Source of the DNA: a virus
Taxonomy: Duplodnaviria > Caudoviricetes
Reading direction: 5' to 3' (one strand)
Length of the DNA: 64,000 bases
IMG/VR virus record: IMGVR_UViG_3300035501_000922
Position numbers and translations under genes: made by a program. Within the stretch, counting starts at the first letter, position 1. Every line of letters begins with the position of its first letter. This document shows, one piece after another, positions 9,238-36,172 of this stretch. The notes beneath the pieces are model-generated. The model searched no databases. It saw only the letters and a list, made by a program, of their open reading frames with translations, and was not told the DNA's origin.

Positions 9238-12200
9238 TTATTCCTGTTCTGTTTCCTCATCATATGAAGGACCCATAAGATAGTTACGAGTTTTCATCTC
9301 GTGTTTTATTCTCTTTTCAAGTTCTTCTTTAGTAATTACAGGATTTTCTTCCAGAATTTCTTCTCTTATTTCTTTCTCTCTTTGAATGATAAAGAACTGA
9401 TAATCCGTACAAAAGTAATTCCTACCGTCAAGTTCATGTGACTTTAATTCGGTATTATTTAATGGATAAATAGCATCATCTTCATCAACAAAGTCTAATC
9501 CGATAGATAACGATTTAAGAATAACATCAAATATTTCTGCTACTCTTGAAGTATAAGAACTATCAATTTTCTGTATCGCATTACTATCAGAATCTTGGAA
9601 AAGTAAGTTTGCTAAATCACGTCTTCCTTTAATAGAAGTTCTATACATAGCATGAAATAATGCTATATCTTCCGGAATTAACGCTATAGAAAAGTTAAGT
9701 GTTTCGAACTCGCCACATTCGATTTATTACTTTATATCACTATAAAGATTAGACTATATCTTCATCCATATATTCTATTACCAAATATATGGAGCTCTCC
9801 GTTTCCACATTTCATGTGTACTCTACTCACTTCTTCATTATAATATTTCTATTATAACTATGCTTTCGATAGTCGTTGAACGTTCTTCTTATAAAGAAGC
9901 TTCGCTGCTGATTGTCTCATTGAGAGTTCCCAGCAATTAAAAGAGTTTTGCTAAATACTATTACTAGTATTTCCGCCCTGGCATTGTTAAAGCGGATGGC
10001 TGTACCGCTGTACTGCTCAAGATGTGACCTTGATTTATAACTTCTAGTGGGTAGTCCCTTGGTGTCAATAGCACCAGTACTTCTAGCACTAAATCCACGA
10101 CGGTCGGACTGTTTTAATTTCAATTATTATTCATATAGATTCGTTACATCTATATCTGTTTATACAGCTCTATGTCACCATAGAGTTTAGACTATATCAC
10201 ATCCATATATTCTGTTACTAAATATACAGACCCTTGCACTTCCACTCTACTTAGAGTGTACTCTACTCAGTTACTCACTTAGATATTTCTTCTAAGCTAC
10301 CTTTTCGATAGTCGTTGAGCTTAAACTAAATATTATATTTATTTTATATGTCTATTAATATAACTACGTATTTTTTCTTCATTGATATTATATTTTTTCG
10401 ATAATAAACGTTTGATATACTTACTCTTCATACCATGTTGGTATAAATTCTGTGCTTCTTTCTTTAAGTCTTCAGGCAATTCTCGATATGGAATAATTCC
10501 TCCAGTATAGTTACTTATATCTATTTCACTATAAAGACTGTTATAAATAGGATTACTTTTCTTTGCTAAAATATTTGATAGTGACGAATATTTTACACCA
10601 GTGATATCACTTATCTCATATAACGAATACTTATTTTGATTCATCAATTGAAATACCTGACGATATTGTTCTATCGTGTAACTTTCACGGTCATGATAAT
10701 AAGCATCTATATTATAATTTTGACTAATGTCCGTCCATGATTTATGTTTCACTATTAAATAAATCATAGCAAACGATACACCAGTGATATTTGATATTTC
10801 CCGCAATGTTAATAATCCTTCTTCTAAGTATACACAAACATCTTTAATTTGTTCACTGTCGTATATTGCTAAATGAGAATGATGACCACATTTAGCATGT
10901 TTTAATCCTGTTTTAAATGCATGAAGTATATTTTCAGATTTTGTTACCCATTCTAAATTTTCAATAGAATTGTCATGCTTATTGCCATTTTTATGGTTTA
11001 CTTCAGGTTTATTTTCAGGATTTGGTAAAAACGCTGAAGCAACGAGTCGATGTACCGCAAATTGGTATTGCTCATTATTATAAAATAAAACAACTCGTTG
11101 ATAATCATCGTCATAACCTCTAGGCTTTAAAAATTTATTAGTTTTTTCACTAAAAATTTCACCAGTTGAATATACAATATACTCAGTTTTTTCATCATTA
11201 ATATAGATATACTTTTTCATGTTTTTCACCGCCTTTTTAATTATTATCAATAAAGAAATTATTTAGTTTAAGTTGCGTGATTGTCTCTATTCTTAACCTT
11301 ATTACTATACCTTGGACGTTACTCCTCGCCATCATATTATTACTAATATGATTTAGTAGTTAAGACTTAACGAGAGTTCCCCGCAATTCACAAGGTTTTC
11401 TATGATTATTACTAACCATAGCCTCAAATTATTTTTTAAGGATATACATGTCTCCTACCCAAACTTTAGAAAGTATCTTTATCTTTCGTCCCCATTTGTT
11501 TATATAAACATTATCCGGTTGCAACCATGAATACTTTTCGAGAATATCTCTAATTCTATAAAATATTGGTTTAGTTTCCCACATTGGAGATTGATGAATA
11601 TAGATACCATTGTCAATCACATCATCAATAAAATCTTTCTTTTCGGACTCATTCATATCTAAATACATTTTTTGTATTTGTTTATGCTCGTCCTCATTAA
11701 ACTCATAAAGAATATCAAAGAAAAGTTTTTCTCTTTCCTTGTAATCTTCGTATTCTTGCATTTTCTTTCGCACCTGATGACAAATAGATGTCATCGTAAT
11801 TTCATAAAGCGGCATACTCGTTGTGCGATTAATAATAGCAAGAAGATTTAATAATAAATCAACCCTTCTACCATCTTCAGTAAAAGGCATATCTTCATCT
11901 TCTCTGATTTCTGAAATAACCGATTTGTTACCAAAACGCAATTACATTCATATAGACTCGTTACATCTATATCTGTTTATACAGCTCTATGTCACCATAG
12001 AGTTTAGACTATATCTTCATCCACATATTCTATTACCAAATATATGGAGCTCTGCACTTCCACTCTACTTAGAGTGTACTCTACTCACTTCTTCACTTAA
12101 GTATTTCTCTTAAGTTATGCTTTCGATAGTCGTTGAACGTTCTTCTATTAAGAAGCTTCGCTGCTGATTGTCTTCATGAGACCTTCCAGCAATTCACAGA

Positions 12201-13706
12201 GTTTGAAATATACATTACTGCATATTCAGGCAGTTTTTGTTTACCTGTTAATTTCTGTCCCTTAGCCAAAGGAACCACTTTACGTACAGTTATTTCAATA
12301 ACCATATTCGAAAAGGCACTGTCCAATTTTTTGTTAATCTCTACCTTTCAGTAGAAGTTCAGACTATATCTTCATCTTATACTCTATTACCAAGTATAAA
12401 GAGCTCTCCGTTTCCACTATATAAATAATGTACTCTACTCACTTCTTCACCTAGATATTTCTCCTAAGTTATGCTTTCGATAGTCGTTGAACGTTCTTCC
12501 ATTAGGAAGCTTCGCTGCTGATTGTCTCTATTCATTAGATTGTCACACTTTGGTACTAATGACCTAACAAGAGTTCCCAGCAATTAGAAGAGTTTATAGA
12601 GGGTTCGAATACCTTTAGCCCTCTTTCCATTTCTTTTCTTTGTCAAGCATTTCCAGTGCACGCTTATAAAGATAATCAACCTCTCTGGTATATTTATATC
12701 CAGAATCCATGATTTCTATACATGCATCAAGAATCTCTTTGTAATACTTATTTTGACCTCTGAGGTACTTATTAATCTGCTCTGTAAAAGCAGTATCAAC
12801 AATTTCTTCATTGTTATTATAAATAGTATAGTCAATAACTTCATTACCATTACCAATATAATAAACAATGTCGCCCTCATGAATCTGATTTAGTGATTCA
12901 CCTTTGAAATCAAATAAAAGCTGATTGTTAAATTGACGTCTGATAGCTGCAAGATGACCACTTACTGTTTCACCTATTTCAGGTAATGGTTTATACTTAC
13001 CTTTCTTATTAGGAATAAGAGAATAGGTATTATCAGGTTCACCCTGAAGATTAATGAAATAATCATTATCATTTAAACCAATAGTAATTACTTCAGTCTC
13101 AATAGATGTAAACTTGCCTGCTAAGCTTCTAGATACTACGGCAGCATCTTCTGAAGTATAAGGGTCAAGAGTATACATTACCGTTACATTACGACCATAT
13201 GCATAATTCATGTCTTCATCATAAGATGTTGACTTATACAATACAGTATTTTTGGGTATGTCATCTCCCTCTTCAAAACTATCAATAACGTCATTATTAT
13301 AGTCAAAACCAAAGTTTTCAGTAAGGTCTTCAACTTTCTTTCTGGTAATAACATCAAACTCTTCTTTTTCTGTATCAAATACAAAAAGTTTATAGATATT
13401 CGGTTCATCCAGAATCTCATCGAATTTTTCTACCTTTCTGAAAACTACAAGATTGTTTTTGGTCTGCTTATATCCTGAACTATGTTTACCAACAACGTTT
13501 TCTGCATTTGTAAAAACGTATGGAAATTCAGGATGCTGTAGATTCAAAAATTGCTTGAGGTGACTTGTAAACATAGTCGACCTCATACTGTTAATGTAGC
13601 CAGGATATGACAAAACAGTCATACCAAGCAGTGAAGACGAATTTTGATACTGTTCGTCTGCCTTGTACAGTTCTTCTTTCAAACTGTATTTCTGTACCTC
13701 TGGCAT
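9238..13706 (-). CDS. RNA polymerase beta subunit, C-terminal part; 5 exons and 4 group I introns (about 759 aa)
   Basis: Exons 13706-12618, 12323-12243, 11938-11438, 10120-9990, 9715-9238. Splicing restores the beta motifs EDA, GQKLTG|RFGNKSVI, DMPFTEDG, GDMYIL|KLKQ, SARSTG and RF|GEFE. Confidence 0.9.
9716..9989 (-). mobile_element. group I intron (beta-C intron 4, ORF-less)
   Basis: Core elements AAUUGCUGGGAA, AAUCAGCAGC, GUUCAACGACUA and AAGAUAUAGUC; P1 with U.G; terminal G at 9716; TT|T restores Phe of RFGE. Confidence 0.9.
10121..11437 (-). mobile_element. group I intron (beta-C intron 3) carrying an HNH ORF
   Basis: P, Q, R and S elements; P1 CCUU/GAGG; terminal G at 10121; ORF lies between Q and R (P6 region). 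Confidence 0.9.
10339..11220 (-). CDS. intron-encoded HNH homing endonuclease
   Basis: VHRLVASAFLPNPENKPEVNHKNGNKHDNSIENLEW followed by repeated HTH-like modules. Confidence 0.9.
   Translation of the reverse strand: MKKYIYINDEKTEYIVYSTGEIFSEKTNKFLKPRGYDDDYQRVVLFYNNEQYQFAVHRLVASAFLPNPENKPEVNHKNGNKHDNSIENLEWVTKSENILHAFKTGLKHAKCGHHSHLAIYDSEQIKDVCVYLEEGLLTLREISNITGVSFAMIYLIVKHKSWTDISQNYNIDAYYHDRESYTIEQYRQVFQLMNQNKYSLYEISDITGVKYSSLSNILAKKSNPIYNSLYSEIDISNYTGGIIPYRELPEDLKKEAQNLYQHGMKSKYIKRLLSKKYNINEEKIRSYINRHIK
11939..12242 (-). mobile_element. group I intron (beta-C intron 2, ORF-less)
   Basis: P1 CAGGU/GCCUG; full core; terminal G at 11939; splits GQKLTG|RFGNK. Confidence 0.9.
12324..12617 (-). 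mobile_element. group I intron (beta-C intron 1, ORF-less; junction ambiguous by 1 nt)
   Basis: Full core; P1 AGAGGG/CCCUCU; P10 AAAGGUAUU/AGUGCCUUU; no canonical U.G at the 5' splice site. Confidence 0.85.
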
Positions 13707-29554: not shown

Positions 29555-32500
29555 TTAAATGCTGTTTAAGAAGAACAACAGCTCATCGCTGATCTTATCT
29601 TCGGAATAAAGTATTTCTTGACCCAGTAATTCAGGATTCTCATAAGTCACATACGTAAATCTCGTATTTATAAGTGTACTTAATAACGACAGAATGTAGT
29701 CCGGTTTAATCTGCTGTAACAAATTGTATTTATTAGTAATAAGATTTTGATAAAGATATGACTCTTCAATCTTAGAAATAAACTTGTTGTTACGAATTAT
29801 TCTTGTATTTACTCTATCTTCCAAGTTTCCTGTTAAAATATACGGCAATGCTGCTTGATGAACCTCACCGTTTTCATCTTTCTCATATCCCAGTTCGATA
29901 AGTAATTTCTTCTTAAGAAGTAATGCCAGTATAATATAATCTCTTCTAGTAAGTAAGTTTAAATCTCTATAAGACCCAAAATACTTTGTATAGTATGAGT
30001 ATATCAACTGAATTTGTATTTTTGATGGTGTAAGATGCTCTCTGTAATAATCAACCTCTTCTTCAGACAACGGTACATCAATGATCTTTCGGATCCTTTC
30101 AATTGTCTTTTGAATATTGATATCTGCAAACGTGGTAGCACCTTCATCTAACTTAGTTAGATTCATTGCCATTTTATCAATACCTGATAATCCATCACTA
30201 TTTTTTGTATTTGTAACTTCTGTTATATTTTTCTGGTACTGTTCTTTCAGGAAGTAATTAAGTTGAAATTTTATACATTTACTACCTCATGTTTCCATGC
30301 AGGATTAGACTATATCTTCATCTCTATATTCTATTACCAAATATAAAGAGCCACCCATTTCGGAATTAAAATCCTACTCTACTCAGTTACTCACTTAGAT
30401 ATTTCTTCTAAGCTACCTTTTCGATAGTCGTTGAACGTTCTTCAATAAAGAAGCTTCGCTGCTGATTGTCTCTATTCATTAGATTATTACACTTTGGTAC
30501 TAATGACCTAACAAGAAGTTCCCAGCAATTAGAGTGGTTTGTCCAGTGGTTTGCACCACTTTGCGACTATTAAATTTAATCGTTTTGTTAACCTTATATA
30601 TCTTGTCTTTCGACAAAGAAGTAGACTATATCTTCATCATATATTCTTTTACCAAATATATAATGCCTCCCATTTCGGATTTACTTAAATCCTACTCTAC
30701 TCGGTTACTCACTTAAGTATTTCTCTTAAGATACCCTTTCGATAGTCGTTGAACGTTCTTATATATTAAATTTAAATTATTTTAGTAGATTTTATTAGGT
30801 GGGGATTAAAAATTTTTATCATATTATTACTTCCTTTCATGTTTTTTAAATTCATAGTTACATGCAATAGTTTTCCACGATTTACCCGCATAGATTAATC
30901 CTATAGATTCGCTTGAAACACCTGTCTTTTCAGATATCTCAGCATATGTCTTATTGCCGGCTTGAAGCATCTCACAAACTAAATGAATTTGTTCCTTGGT
31001 ATACTTTATTTTGCATTTTCGTGCACTGACACTATATCTATCAATATCGTAATTTTTACTGATGTTATTCCATATTATATGATTACGAATTTGTTTTACT
31101 ACAGTGTATGAAACGTTAGTTAAATTTGAAATTTCTCTCATTGTTTTCAAATTTTCTTCAAGATATTTACATACCTTTTGAATTTGTTCATTCGTATACT
31201 CAGAATTTGGATGGTCTTCTCCGTCTTTTGCAGAACTTAGTCCAGTTTTCCACGCATGATGAATATTTTCTTTAGCTGTATTCCATTCTAAATTTGAAAC
31301 GCAGTTGTTATCAATATTCCCATCCTTATGGTTAACTTGTTCTTTATTTTCAGGATTTGGAATAAATGCCGATGCAACTAATCTATGGACTGCACAATAA
31401 TGGGGTTTACCATCTATATAGATAATAACATGATGGTACCCATCTTTGTCTAACCAATGCATAAGAATCTTTTTTGTTTGCTTCCTTATGCTTATTACTT
31501 CGCCATTTATTGTAACCATATATTTTGTTTTTATCCCGTTTAAATAAATCCACCTAATAAAATTATCATCTGTATAATCAATACCTAAAGTATCGATTAA
31601 AAATTGATTAAGTTGTTTTTTCTTACTCATAATTTATAAATATATAAGCTTCGCTGCGGATTGTCTCTATTCTTAACATTGTTACTATACCTTTGGAATT
31701 ACCCATTGCCATTATTATATTACTATAATAATTTAGTAGTTAAGACCTAACGAGAAGTTCCCCGCAATTAAAGAGGTTTTAATTGAGCTATAACTAACCC
31801 AATGATGTTCTCCTTGTACTTATGAAGTTTCGGATCCCAATGCTCGTTGAATTTATATTTAACTATATTTTCACTAATAAGAACAGTTTTTGTGAAGTGA
31901 TTAATTACAGTGTATACATCTGTACCAAAAATCTCCCTTTGTTCAAAGATAGGGGCATTATTACTATTTGATTCTAAAACCTTGGCTTTGCATAATTTTC
32001 ATATAAGTTTGTTATCACTTATACAGTTTTGTTATAAACTTCTTCATGTTTCCATGAATGATAAGACTATATCTTCATCTTTATTTCTGTTACCAAAATA
32101 TAGATGCCTACCATTTCCACTCTACTTAGAGTGTACTCTACTCACTTCCAGTTACCGTATTTCTCAAATAACCGTGTTTTCGATAGTCGTTGAACGTTCT
32201 TCCATTAGGAAGCTTCGCTGCTGATTGTCTCTATTCATTAGATTATTACACTTTGGTACTAATGACCTAACGAGAGTTCCCAGCAATTAGATAGGTTGCA
32301 ATAATACATCGCTGTATTACGACGCCATTAATTAACGTAGCAGTAAAGTTTGTTGTACATATTAATTTCTTGTAATGCATAATACGTACCAGATTCAGTA
32401 TAATAGTATGTCAGCCTTCTATCTGAACTTTTTACAGGAGTTAATTCTTTATTTTTAACGCCTTCATCAATAAATGATTGGGGCACATTATTATCAAGGA

Positions 32501-34078: not shown

Positions 34079-36118
34079 TTAAAAATTATGCTTTTGTGTT
34101 ACAACCATCTGGTTTCCTGTAATAAGGAGAGAAATTAAATCAATTGTAGCTTTAAGAATCTCCTCATCCGTTTGTGCACTGTTAATAACGTTATTGGTAA
34201 ATGACTTAGTAGATACATCAAAAACACAACCATTTGCAACGGAATAATTAATAATAATATCGTGCAAAGATGTTGTAACTGTTTTATCTGTTGAATGAAT
34301 CTTTTCTATAGCATTATTGAATGATTCGTAATCTTTAAAAATCTGCTTAAACAAAGGAAGCTTATTAAAAAGATCTTCAGGAATAGTTCCATCAACTAAC
34401 TCAATTTCAATATCGTTAAATGCATTTGACAATACGGTACGATATACATCTTCAAATCCACCTTGAAGAATTTCGTATAAAGTTCTTGTCACATCATCAT
34501 AGTCACAACAAACTCTTTTATCAATAGCTCTTAAAAGGTCTACATTACAACCATTAACTACGCCATGATTGAATGCGGATGCAGCAGCCTTTATAGCATC
34601 ATCAACCGCATCTTTCAGTAACTTCTGGGAAAGTTCACTATCGGCTCCGACCTCGATAATACCCATTTTTAAGTTAAGTGAATAGAAGCGTTCTTGTGCC
34701 TGACTAACTTCAAGATTAAATGTACCAAGTTTCTGATATTTTGCTTCTGTCTCAGCAAGTGTATCTTTAGCATCTTTATATATAACATCAAATCTCTTTT
34801 CATCATATACAAAGCTGCCAAATACTGATGACTTCAGTCCAATCGAGCAATCCTTAACGTATCCAAGTCGAATCGGATTTTCTATAAGGTCAGGTAATCT
34901 ATAACCTTCAGGGAGCTCTTCTTGACCATAAGTAAAATTACTAGCAGTCAATGAACCAGCATTGTCATGAAGAATCATACACTTTGTACCCTGTATTTCT
35001 CGATTATGAATATTAAAGATTTCCCAAATATATCTACCATTATCGTACTCTTCAAAAATAGTCCTTTCAATAGGTCTATCAATAATAAGAGTATTAGTCA
35101 ATACTGCAAAATCTTCAATCAATCTTCTTGCATGAGCAGAAGTAGACTTATAGGTTGTTAAAACCATATTAATATCCTTATTCTTCTGGTACTCATTGTT
35201 TAAGTCACGAGCAATTACTTGTCTTAAAGCAACCTCATCATATAAAGGTGCTGCAACAATGAGATGACGTCCCATGTACTTACTCTGTTCATTCAGAGGT
35301 TTGAGAATCTTCTCATATGTATCTTTCGTAACTTTTGTAGAGAATATTACAATGTCAGCGTCGGAAAGCTTCATTGTATCATCATCTGAATTTATGTATA
35401 ACTTATCGGTGAGCGTTAAGTCAAACTTATAGCCATCAATAAGTCTTTTCTTTGTAATTCCATCAGGAGCAAGCATACAGCTGATAGCAGGACAACCAAG
35501 TTCCTTATATAAGTCAGATATATATTCTGTTATTTCTTCATCACCATTACTAGAGATATAAACAACATCGTAGATATTTTTATATAAAGTTTCAGGGTCA
35601 TCACTGCGAATTACTCTTACATATTCTTGTAAGTCTTTAACAAGGTCTTCCTTGATTTTATTATACTTCTTGATAATATCTCTAGGAAGGATGGAATGAT
35701 TATTTAACCAATCCCTTCTTTCAATGTAATTCTGATAAATGCTATTTGTTGCAATTACTGCAGATGTTGTTCCATCACCAACTGAATAATTCAAACGTCC
35801 GCATATATCAGCTGCCATGTCGGCAATTGCTTGGTCAACGAGTGTTTCAGACGCATCCATTGAAAGATTTTTCATGATTGTATATCCGTCTTTAGTCACA
35901 TGGCTCCACGGATAATTATAAATTAACGTGGGTGCACCATAAGGACCAAAAGATTTAGATAGAGTTTTCCAAAGAAGATGAAAAACCTTCTGGATTCTCT
36001 CTTCAAACTCTTCCTTGGAAATTACATTAACGGCAGGATCCTTCTTGAATCTTCTACCATCTTCAGAACTCATATCGGTACCGACGTTGAGTTCTTTAAC
36101 TTCACCATTGTTTGCCAT
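34079..36118 (-). CDS. groEL: GroEL-like chaperonin
   Basis: SFGPYG, VTKDGYTI, GDGTTSA, ISSNGD, DAVDDAIKAA and GVVNG motifs. Confidence 0.9.
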   Translation of the reverse strand: MANNGEVKELNVGTDMSSEDGRRFKKDPAVNVISKEEFEERIQKVFHLLWKTLSKSFGPYGAPTLIYNYPWSHVTKDGYTIMKNLSMDASETLVDQAIADMAADICGRLNYSVGDGTTSAVIATNSIYQNYIERRDWLNNHSILPRDIIKKYNKIKEDLVKDLQEYVRVIRSDDPETLYKNIYDVVYISSNGDEEITEYISDLYKELGCPAISCMLAPDGITKKRLIDGYKFDLTLTDKLYINSDDDTMKLSDADIVIFSTKVTKDTYEKILKPLNEQSKYMGRHLIVAAPLYDEVALRQVIARDLNNEYQKNKDINMVLTTYKSTSAHARRLIEDFAVLTNTLIIDRPIERTIFEEYDNGRYIWEIFNIHNREIQGTKCMILHDNAGSLTASNFTYGQEELPEGYRLPDLIENPIRLGYVKDCSIGLKSSVFGSFVYDEKRFDVIYKDAKDTLAETEAKYQKLGTFNLEVSQAQERFYSLNLKMGIIEVGADSELSQKLLKDAVDDAIKAAASAFNHGVVNGCNVDLLRAIDKRVCCDYDDVTRTLYEILQGGFEDVYRTVLSNAFNDIEIELVDGTIPEDLFNKLPLFKQIFKDYESFNNAIEKIHSTDKTVTTSLHDIIINYSVANGCVFDVSTKSFTNNVINSAQTDEEILKATIDLISLLITGNQMVVTQKHNF

Positions 36119-36172
36119 AAATAAATCTCCCTTCAAAAAATGTTAGAAAACTGTTGTGAGCAATATGCTATT

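Follow-up and report, generated by a model that had tools for sequence, protein, structure and literature searches.

A 13-nt segment of the minus strand, in the 64,000-nt stretch of viral DNA analysed here (hereafter, the window), was found to be, with high probability, a true coding micro-exon between two separately inserted mobile group I introns, which make non-overlapping contacts with it and can be spliced in either order. The micro-exon belongs to one gene (minus strand 33170-29555) with four exons and three introns, designated A, B, and C (Table 1). Joining the four exons gives 1764 nt encoding 587 aa, with the only stop codon at the end. We confirmed both the position (30591-30579) and the sequence (TTAACAAAACGAT) that a preliminary description had given for this exon, as well as its location between two group I introns. 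The same description had stated that splicing of the two introns must be ordered and that 13 nt is near the minimum length for an exon in this arrangement; neither of these two claims held, as discussed below.

Table 1. Exons, introns, and recognition elements of the interrupted gene in the window, and micro-exons of the tandem lineages.
Feature	Start	End	Strand	Description and basis
Exon 1	32335	33170	-	Starts MAEEKQRK, ends ...NKLYCYV; ORF list; phrog_25005 'RNA polymerase' (E = 1.6e-10)
Intron A	31991	32334	-	Group I, without ORF; RF00028, 97.2 bits at 32344-32042; ends set by homologue frame and by terminal U and G
Exon 2	31797	31990	-	KAKVLES...KYKENIIG plus base 1 of the Phe codon
Intron B	30592	31796	-	Group I, 1205 nt, endonuclease ORF in P6 loop; Rfam halves, core alignment with intron C, 7-bp P1
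GUUA in P1 loop of intron B	31791	31794	-	Candidate P10 partner of micro-exon nt 2-5 (UAAC)
Guide sequence of intron B, GCUCAAU	31782	31788	-	P1, 7 bp, with exon 31803-31797 (AUUGGGU)
Intron-B ORF	30827	31630	-	Predicted I-HmuI-like HNH homing endonuclease, 267 aa plus stop; phrog_59, HNH_3, 1U3E
Micro-exon	30579	30591	-	13 nt, TTAACAAAACGAT; last two bases of Phe, Asn, Lys, Thr, first two bases of Ile
Intron C	30276	30578	-	Group I, without ORF, 303 nt; RF00028, 82.7 bits; terminal G at 30276
Guide sequence of intron C, UAGUCG	30564	30569	-	GUCG with micro-exon CGAU (30582-30579); UA with first two intron bases
Exon 4	29555	30275	-	Third base of Ile, then IKFQLNYFLKEQ...FFLNSI plus stop; phrog_25005 match
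Micro-exon, window				TTAACAAAACGAT
Micro-exon, L031 / L029				TTAATAAAACGAT
Micro-exon, L033				TTAATAAGACTAT
Micro-exon, L037 / L038 / L028				TCAACAAAACCAT

Identity and Reading Frame of the Interrupted Gene

Exons 1 and 4 both matched phrog_25005, which is annotated as 'RNA polymerase'. A profile built from 17 homologues (44-76% identity to the first aligned homologue, P0002) matched PDB 7S01_A with an E value of 5.9e-29 over residues 10-461 of 464, and also matched chain A of 7UM0 and 7UM1 over nearly its full length; we take chain A of these three structures to be gp226, the promoter-specificity subunit of the AR9 non-virion RNA polymerase (nvRNAP). Judged by sequence, the interrupted gene is a homologue of this AR9 gp226 promoter-specificity subunit of a jumbo-phage nvRNAP. 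Its homologues are located on metagenomic contigs of about 220-280 kb. The sole match of the locus in a megablast search against GenBank phages was to 73 nt of an I-HmuI-like gene, and a tblastn search with exon 4 against GenBank phages returned no match, and hence no cultured relative among them. A 687-aa ORF (34079-36142 (-)), GroEL-like chaperonin by eye from its translation, is located just upstream of the subunit gene.

Read along the minus strand, the junctions follow the order ...GAGAACATCATTGGGT / intron B / TTAACAAAACGAT / intron C / TATAAAATTTCAACTT...; insertion site B is in phase 1 of a Phe codon (after GGG T), and insertion site C is in phase 2 of an Ile codon (after ACG AT). The interval from the terminal G of intron B to the first base of intron C is exactly 13 nt, leaving no fitting choice. 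These 13 nt are needed in the mature message because uninterrupted homologues read through this position without a gap. At least 120 uninterrupted homologues (~570-640 aa) among the matches listed read ...ENIIGFNKTIIKFQL... gap-free, and a search with exon 4 retrieved 273 longer proteins, of which those inspected were uninterrupted, up to 91% identical, and read ...KYKENIIGFNKTIIKFQLNYFLKEQ...; an alignment of 198 sequences was likewise gap-free at the micro-exon, with G, F, N, K, and T as the majority residues. Consistent with the earlier assignment of FNKTI to this exon, it supplies (F)NKT(I), as the four-exon join keeps the frame and the homologues agree; skipping the 13 nt would also shift the frame as predicted, giving ...KENIIGL-stop. 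The exon 1/exon 2 junction (YCYV|KAKVLES) agrees with the homologues as well, and exon 4 is 91% identical to the intron-free homologue P0001, with all 239 codons intact. Gene callers fragment this essential RNA-polymerase subunit gene of such phages; annotation of these phages needs models that take introns and micro-exons into account, which mitochondrial annotators already have.

Structure of Introns A, B, and C

A total of seven group I introns in the window reached the Rfam gathering score, introns A and C among them. The RF00028 match of intron C covers model positions 1-253 and lies well above the gathering cut-off of 50 bits. Intron B is represented in Rfam by two halves, one of 33.1 bits (30664-30603, P8-P9) and one of 16 bits (31766-31610, P4-P6), against the same cut-off of 50, because an 801-nt ORF occupies its P6 loop. 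After deletion of this ORF, intron B aligns end to end with introns A and C, with all core blocks present and 79% identity to intron C. The last base is U in each of the three 5′ exons and G in each of the three introns (30592 for intron B). P3 differs among the introns by compensatory changes (CCUAUC/GGUAGG in A, CCUCUU/GGGAGG in B, and CCACUC/GGGUGG in C). Judged by these core elements, introns B and C are predicted group I self-splicing introns, whose autocatalysis we infer from structure.

The ORF in intron B is a predicted HNH homing endonuclease of the I-HmuI type, with matches to phrog_59 (E = 1.9e-50), Pfam HNH_3 (31 bits; cut-off 24.8), and PDB 1U3E (I-HmuI; E = 3.6e-17, residues 26-132); its score against NUMOD4 (18.4) is under the cut-off of 23.4.

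Intron A extends ~50 nt past its Rfam match (31991-32041 (-)), with a tail hairpin (UAUAAGU...ACUUAUA) that is also present in the intron at a further insertion site, D, of a related locus (L031:7650-7706); automated intron ends in this intron family fall short because this hairpin lies outside the Rfam match. Continued into intron C, the frame of the micro-exon meets no stop for ~26 codons (through P1-P5), and in intron B it meets one after 9 codons (30500-30625 (-)); ribosomes entering unspliced intron C could therefore disturb its folding. Two further group I introns lie in tandem elsewhere in the window (11985-12675 (-); Rfam matches 11985-12252 and 12339-12675), with an exon of ~85-90 nt between them that ends ...GQKLTG.

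Recurrence of the Micro-Exon in Related Phages

We compared the window with 37 IMG/VR loci encoding the subunit protein; related loci are referred to by L numbers. Introns at both the B and C sites, with a 13-nt exon between them, are present in six of the 37 loci, which represent three lineages of uncultivated jumbo phages (four lineages with the window). The four micro-exon variants (Table 1) differ solely at nt 2, 5, 8, and 11, each of them the third base of a codon (Phe, Asn, Lys, and Thr, respectively); the chance of four random sites in 13 falling on third positions is 1 in 715. Because variation is confined to third-codon positions, all lineages must read the micro-exon in the predicted frame, and this substitution pattern indicates that it is under in-frame purifying selection in the four lineages. 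An intron at site B only is present in L024 and L002, and an intron at site C only in L034-36, while most of the 37 loci have no intron at either site; because B-only, C-only, and empty alleles all exist, introns B and C represent separate insertions.

Interpretation of L028 and L037 as containing a single 720-nt intron, with the 5′ site of B and the 3′ site of C as its ends, was rejected as two introns were resolved; a permissive Rfam scan of L037 gave two intron matches, of 37.6 and 44.5 bits, on either side of TCAACAAAACCAT, and L028 contains the same micro-exon by pattern. Assignment of L001 (a 579-nt contig) to the B site was rejected because it puts IKFQL out of frame; as a C-site intron, with the 3′ tail ...UCAAUAAAACG, it fits both the frame and the AATCAAG exon start of L033 and L037. 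In this contig (L001:100-180; ENA ERZ28612962 scaffold_1476441), the 3′ tail of the intron reads ...GGTATTATGTCAATAAAACG|AATCAAG, and the micro-exon sequence recurs in the final 11 nt of this tail (TCAATAAAACG); this copy may be a footprint or a pseudo-exon.

A third intron was identified in L031 at site D, 19 nt after site C, and an apparent intron at site D was also found in L003, where the upstream exon is off the contig. The L031 region (L031:5760-8200; IMGVR_UViG_3300045988_176405), on a 249-kb contig, contains six group I introns in ~200 coding nt, with successive exons of about 33, 28, 13, and 19 nt between them and with sites B, C, and D all filled; all six introns have a near-identical P5 extension. 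The comparative set, with four tandem lineages as well as B-only, C-only, three-intron, and empty alleles, can be used for work on intron hot spots, co-conversion, and mis-splicing in uncultivated jumbo phages.

Exon Recognition by Introns B and C

P1 was listed for each intron as the best guide pairing that sets the last U of the exon opposite a G. The guide of intron B co-varies with the Gly and Ile/Val codons of the upstream exon in L031, L024, L033, L037, and L028; the pairing is AUUGGGU/GCUCAAU in the window, GUUGGAU/GUUCAAC in L031 and L024, GGCU/GGCC in L033, and GUUGGGU/GCUCAAC in L037 and L028. For intron C, the proposal that the 3′ CGAU of the micro-exon forms P1 of this downstream intron was borne out, as the pairing exists and its two sides change together from phage to phage (window and L031, CGAU/GUCG; L033, (AGA)CUAU/GUAG(UCU); L037 and L034, CCAU/GUGG). 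The synonymous third positions of the Gly and Thr codons each occur in three different complementary pairs. Both 5′ splice sites are fixed because P1 varies by compensation.

Intron C pairs with the beginning of exon 4 in a long P10, whose sequence likewise varies along with the exon. This P10 comprises nine of ten possible pairs in the window (one A-A mismatch; read from the sequence), 9 bp in L031, 6 bp in L037, and 4 bp in L034. A P10 between UAAC in the micro-exon and GUUA in intron B had been described as well; while this pairing does exist, it is by itself no better than chance, with a match of at least 4 bp in ~50% of shuffled loops (P about 0.5), and the window P10 of intron B was therefore rejected as independent evidence. 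P10 at the B site measures 6 bp in L031 and 8 bp in L024 and just 2-3 bp in L033, L037, and L028. Overall, a P10 for intron B is plausible but weak, with moderate support from the longer P10s in related B-site introns.

Proposed Splicing Pathway and Alternative Explanations

We propose that two mobile group I introns inserted at neighbouring sites in the conserved N-I-I-G-F-N-K-T-I-I-K stretch and that the micro-exon would have been created in this way. Intron B would recognise its 5′ exon through the 7-bp P1 and perhaps its 3′ exon through the weak P10, in which nt 2-5 of the micro-exon take part; for intron C, a P1 of 4+2 bp would bind CGAU (micro-exon nt 10-13), and the long P10 would align exon 4. 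The two introns would then splice independently and in either order; the order of transcription probably favours removal of intron B first, as a matter of kinetics and not of necessity, and synthesis of the 587-aa protein would require both splices to be exact. Splicing in vivo, with its order, efficiency, and fidelity, is what we infer from these features.

With regard to origin, intron B carries an intact I-HmuI-like HNH gene and intron C has no ORF, and the two occur together in four lineages, whereas B-only alleles and C-only alleles are each known from a single IMG/VR lineage. This pattern may suggest that the tandem moves as a linked unit, in which the HNH endonuclease of intron B cuts near its site and repair co-converts intron C, 13 nt away (collaborative or trans homing). 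However, intron B is without an endonuclease ORF in three of the four tandem lineages, where it measures 258-376 nt, and alleles with only one of the two introns exist; furthermore, introns at the same site in different phages are 71-73% alike, less than introns B and C within the window (79%), so that orthology by site was rejected and no clean co-inheritance signal emerges for the pair. We consider linked mobility unlikely on this evidence; it is compatible with the splicing pathway proposed above and differs from it on origin only.

A different objection concerns the length of the exon, which is so short that one intron might have to leave before the other ribozyme can assemble. In the window, eight of the 13 nt are engaged (nt 2-5 and 10-13), and in L031 ten are (nt 1-6 and 10-13); the linker between the P10 of intron B and the P1 of intron C is only 3-5 nt, such that two folded ribozymes might clash sterically, and intron B is transcribed ~300 nt before intron C is complete, which would favour removal of B first. 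Nevertheless, the P10(B) and P1(C) segments do not overlap in any of the four lineages, and removal of either intron spares P1, P10, and core of the other. In addition, mitochondria correctly splice exons as short as 1-3 nt (PMC5436844, PMC2987802), and placozoan RNA-seq data contain both half-spliced intermediates, upstream-first and downstream-first (PMC5436844). An obligatory order is thus distinctly improbable; no order is imposed by the anatomy of the locus because each splice leaves the recognition elements of the other intron unchanged, and the same mRNA results either way.

An equally improbable, broader scenario is that the ~30-nt stretch encoding GFNKTIIKFQLNY serves as a landing pad with three sites (B, C, and D) that accepts related group I introns of one family, where the endonuclease-bearing intron B would co-convert its ORF-less neighbours as a block; divergence of P1 and P3 in each intron, acting against cross-pairing, would allow the introns to sit so densely, with exons of 13 and 19 nt and, in L031, as many as six introns in ~200 coding nt, or, alternatively, occasional skipping would lead to a truncated sigma-like protein.

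That intron B, the micro-exon, and intron C form one composite unit, with exon 2 joined to exon 4 in the main product and the gene either inactivated or giving a truncated N-terminal protein (...ENIIGL-stop) as a regulated alternative, is very improbable, since the micro-exon is selected in frame in four lineages with synonymous changes only, exon 4 retains its 239 intact codons and 91% identity to an intron-free homologue, and a hybrid of B-5′ and C-3′ would have an internal U-U mismatch in P3, even though the B and C cores are 79% identical, the UUAUA in the guide loop of intron B offers a possible pairing partner for the UAUAA at the beginning of exon 4, and phage genes with tandem group I introns, in Twort (orf142) and in SIOphi, are known to undergo exon skipping (PMC11878797, PMC3073962). 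With independent removal of introns B and C as the preferred reading, some exon-skipped, frameshifted product is still possible, because the guide loop of intron B could pair with exon 4 and the two introns are so alike; the divergence of P3 between the introns, which would place a mismatch in a B-5′/C-3′ hybrid, may limit such mis-splicing.

Comparison with Known Systems

The endonuclease of intron B resembles I-HmuI, the HNH nicking endonuclease from the DNA-polymerase intron of SPO1, in that both are HNH proteins encoded inside a phage group I intron; however, the intron-B ORF is longer (267 vs. 174 aa), with extra C-terminal regions that are helix-turn-helix-like.

Exons considerably shorter than 13 nt have been published for mitochondrial genes, and the suggestion that 13 nt is near the minimum for an exon between tandem group I introns was accordingly abandoned. 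In placozoan cox1, a 1-nt exon is flanked by two group IB introns, and both half-spliced intermediates have been seen (PMC5436844); Agaricus bisporus cox1 contains a 3-nt exon (PMC2987802), and mini-exons of under about four codons 'occur regularly' in mitochondrial genes (PMC10352661). In mitochondrial cox1, as in the window, two self-splicing introns, independent of each other, interrupt a conserved coding motif, the tiny exon between them is essential for the frame, and insertion hot spots are found in conserved sequence. The mitochondrial cases differ in that they concern organellar genes with exons of 1-3 nt, often with LAGLIDADG or GIY-YIG ORFs and with protein splicing cofactors, whereas the window presents a phage gene with phage-type introns and an HNH ORF; at 13 nt, moreover, the recognition segments need not overlap.

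Among phages, a small exon between two introns is described for phiNIT1 (PMC11878797), and exon skipping is described both for Twort orf142 and for SIOphi, a Bacillus phage, in its terminase and polymerase genes (PMC11878797, PMC3073962). These tandem-intron genes share with the window the presence of several related group I introns, small internal exons, and a risk of cross-intron joining, while they differ in host gene and in that splicing was shown experimentally (PMC11878797); the window gene, for a gp226-like RNA polymerase subunit of an uncultivated jumbo phage, is known from sequence. The 13-nt phage exon is therefore a further example of a known phenomenon, as small exons and exon skipping have already been published for phages.

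Intron-rich gut jumbo and crAss-like phages (Jug phages) carry about 18.5 group I introns per genome (PMC12880540), and an RNA polymerase gene of PhiPA3 contains an intron with an HNH endonuclease (PMC11620839). In these phages, essential genes, including those for RNA polymerase, carry many group I introns, and HNH genes are located within or close to the genes so interrupted (PMC12880540, PMC11620839), as in the window. Jug phages have genomes of 360-402 kb, whereas contigs related to the window measure 220-280 kb and have the gp226-like subunit gene as the interrupted gene; micro-exons are not discussed, nor does the word 'exon' occur, in the available excerpt on Jug phages (PMC12880540). 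Our finding leaves the knowledge of group I splicing unchanged; what the window illustrates is how little space a phage gene can leave between two self-splicing ribozymes, each of which keeps its own exon contacts.
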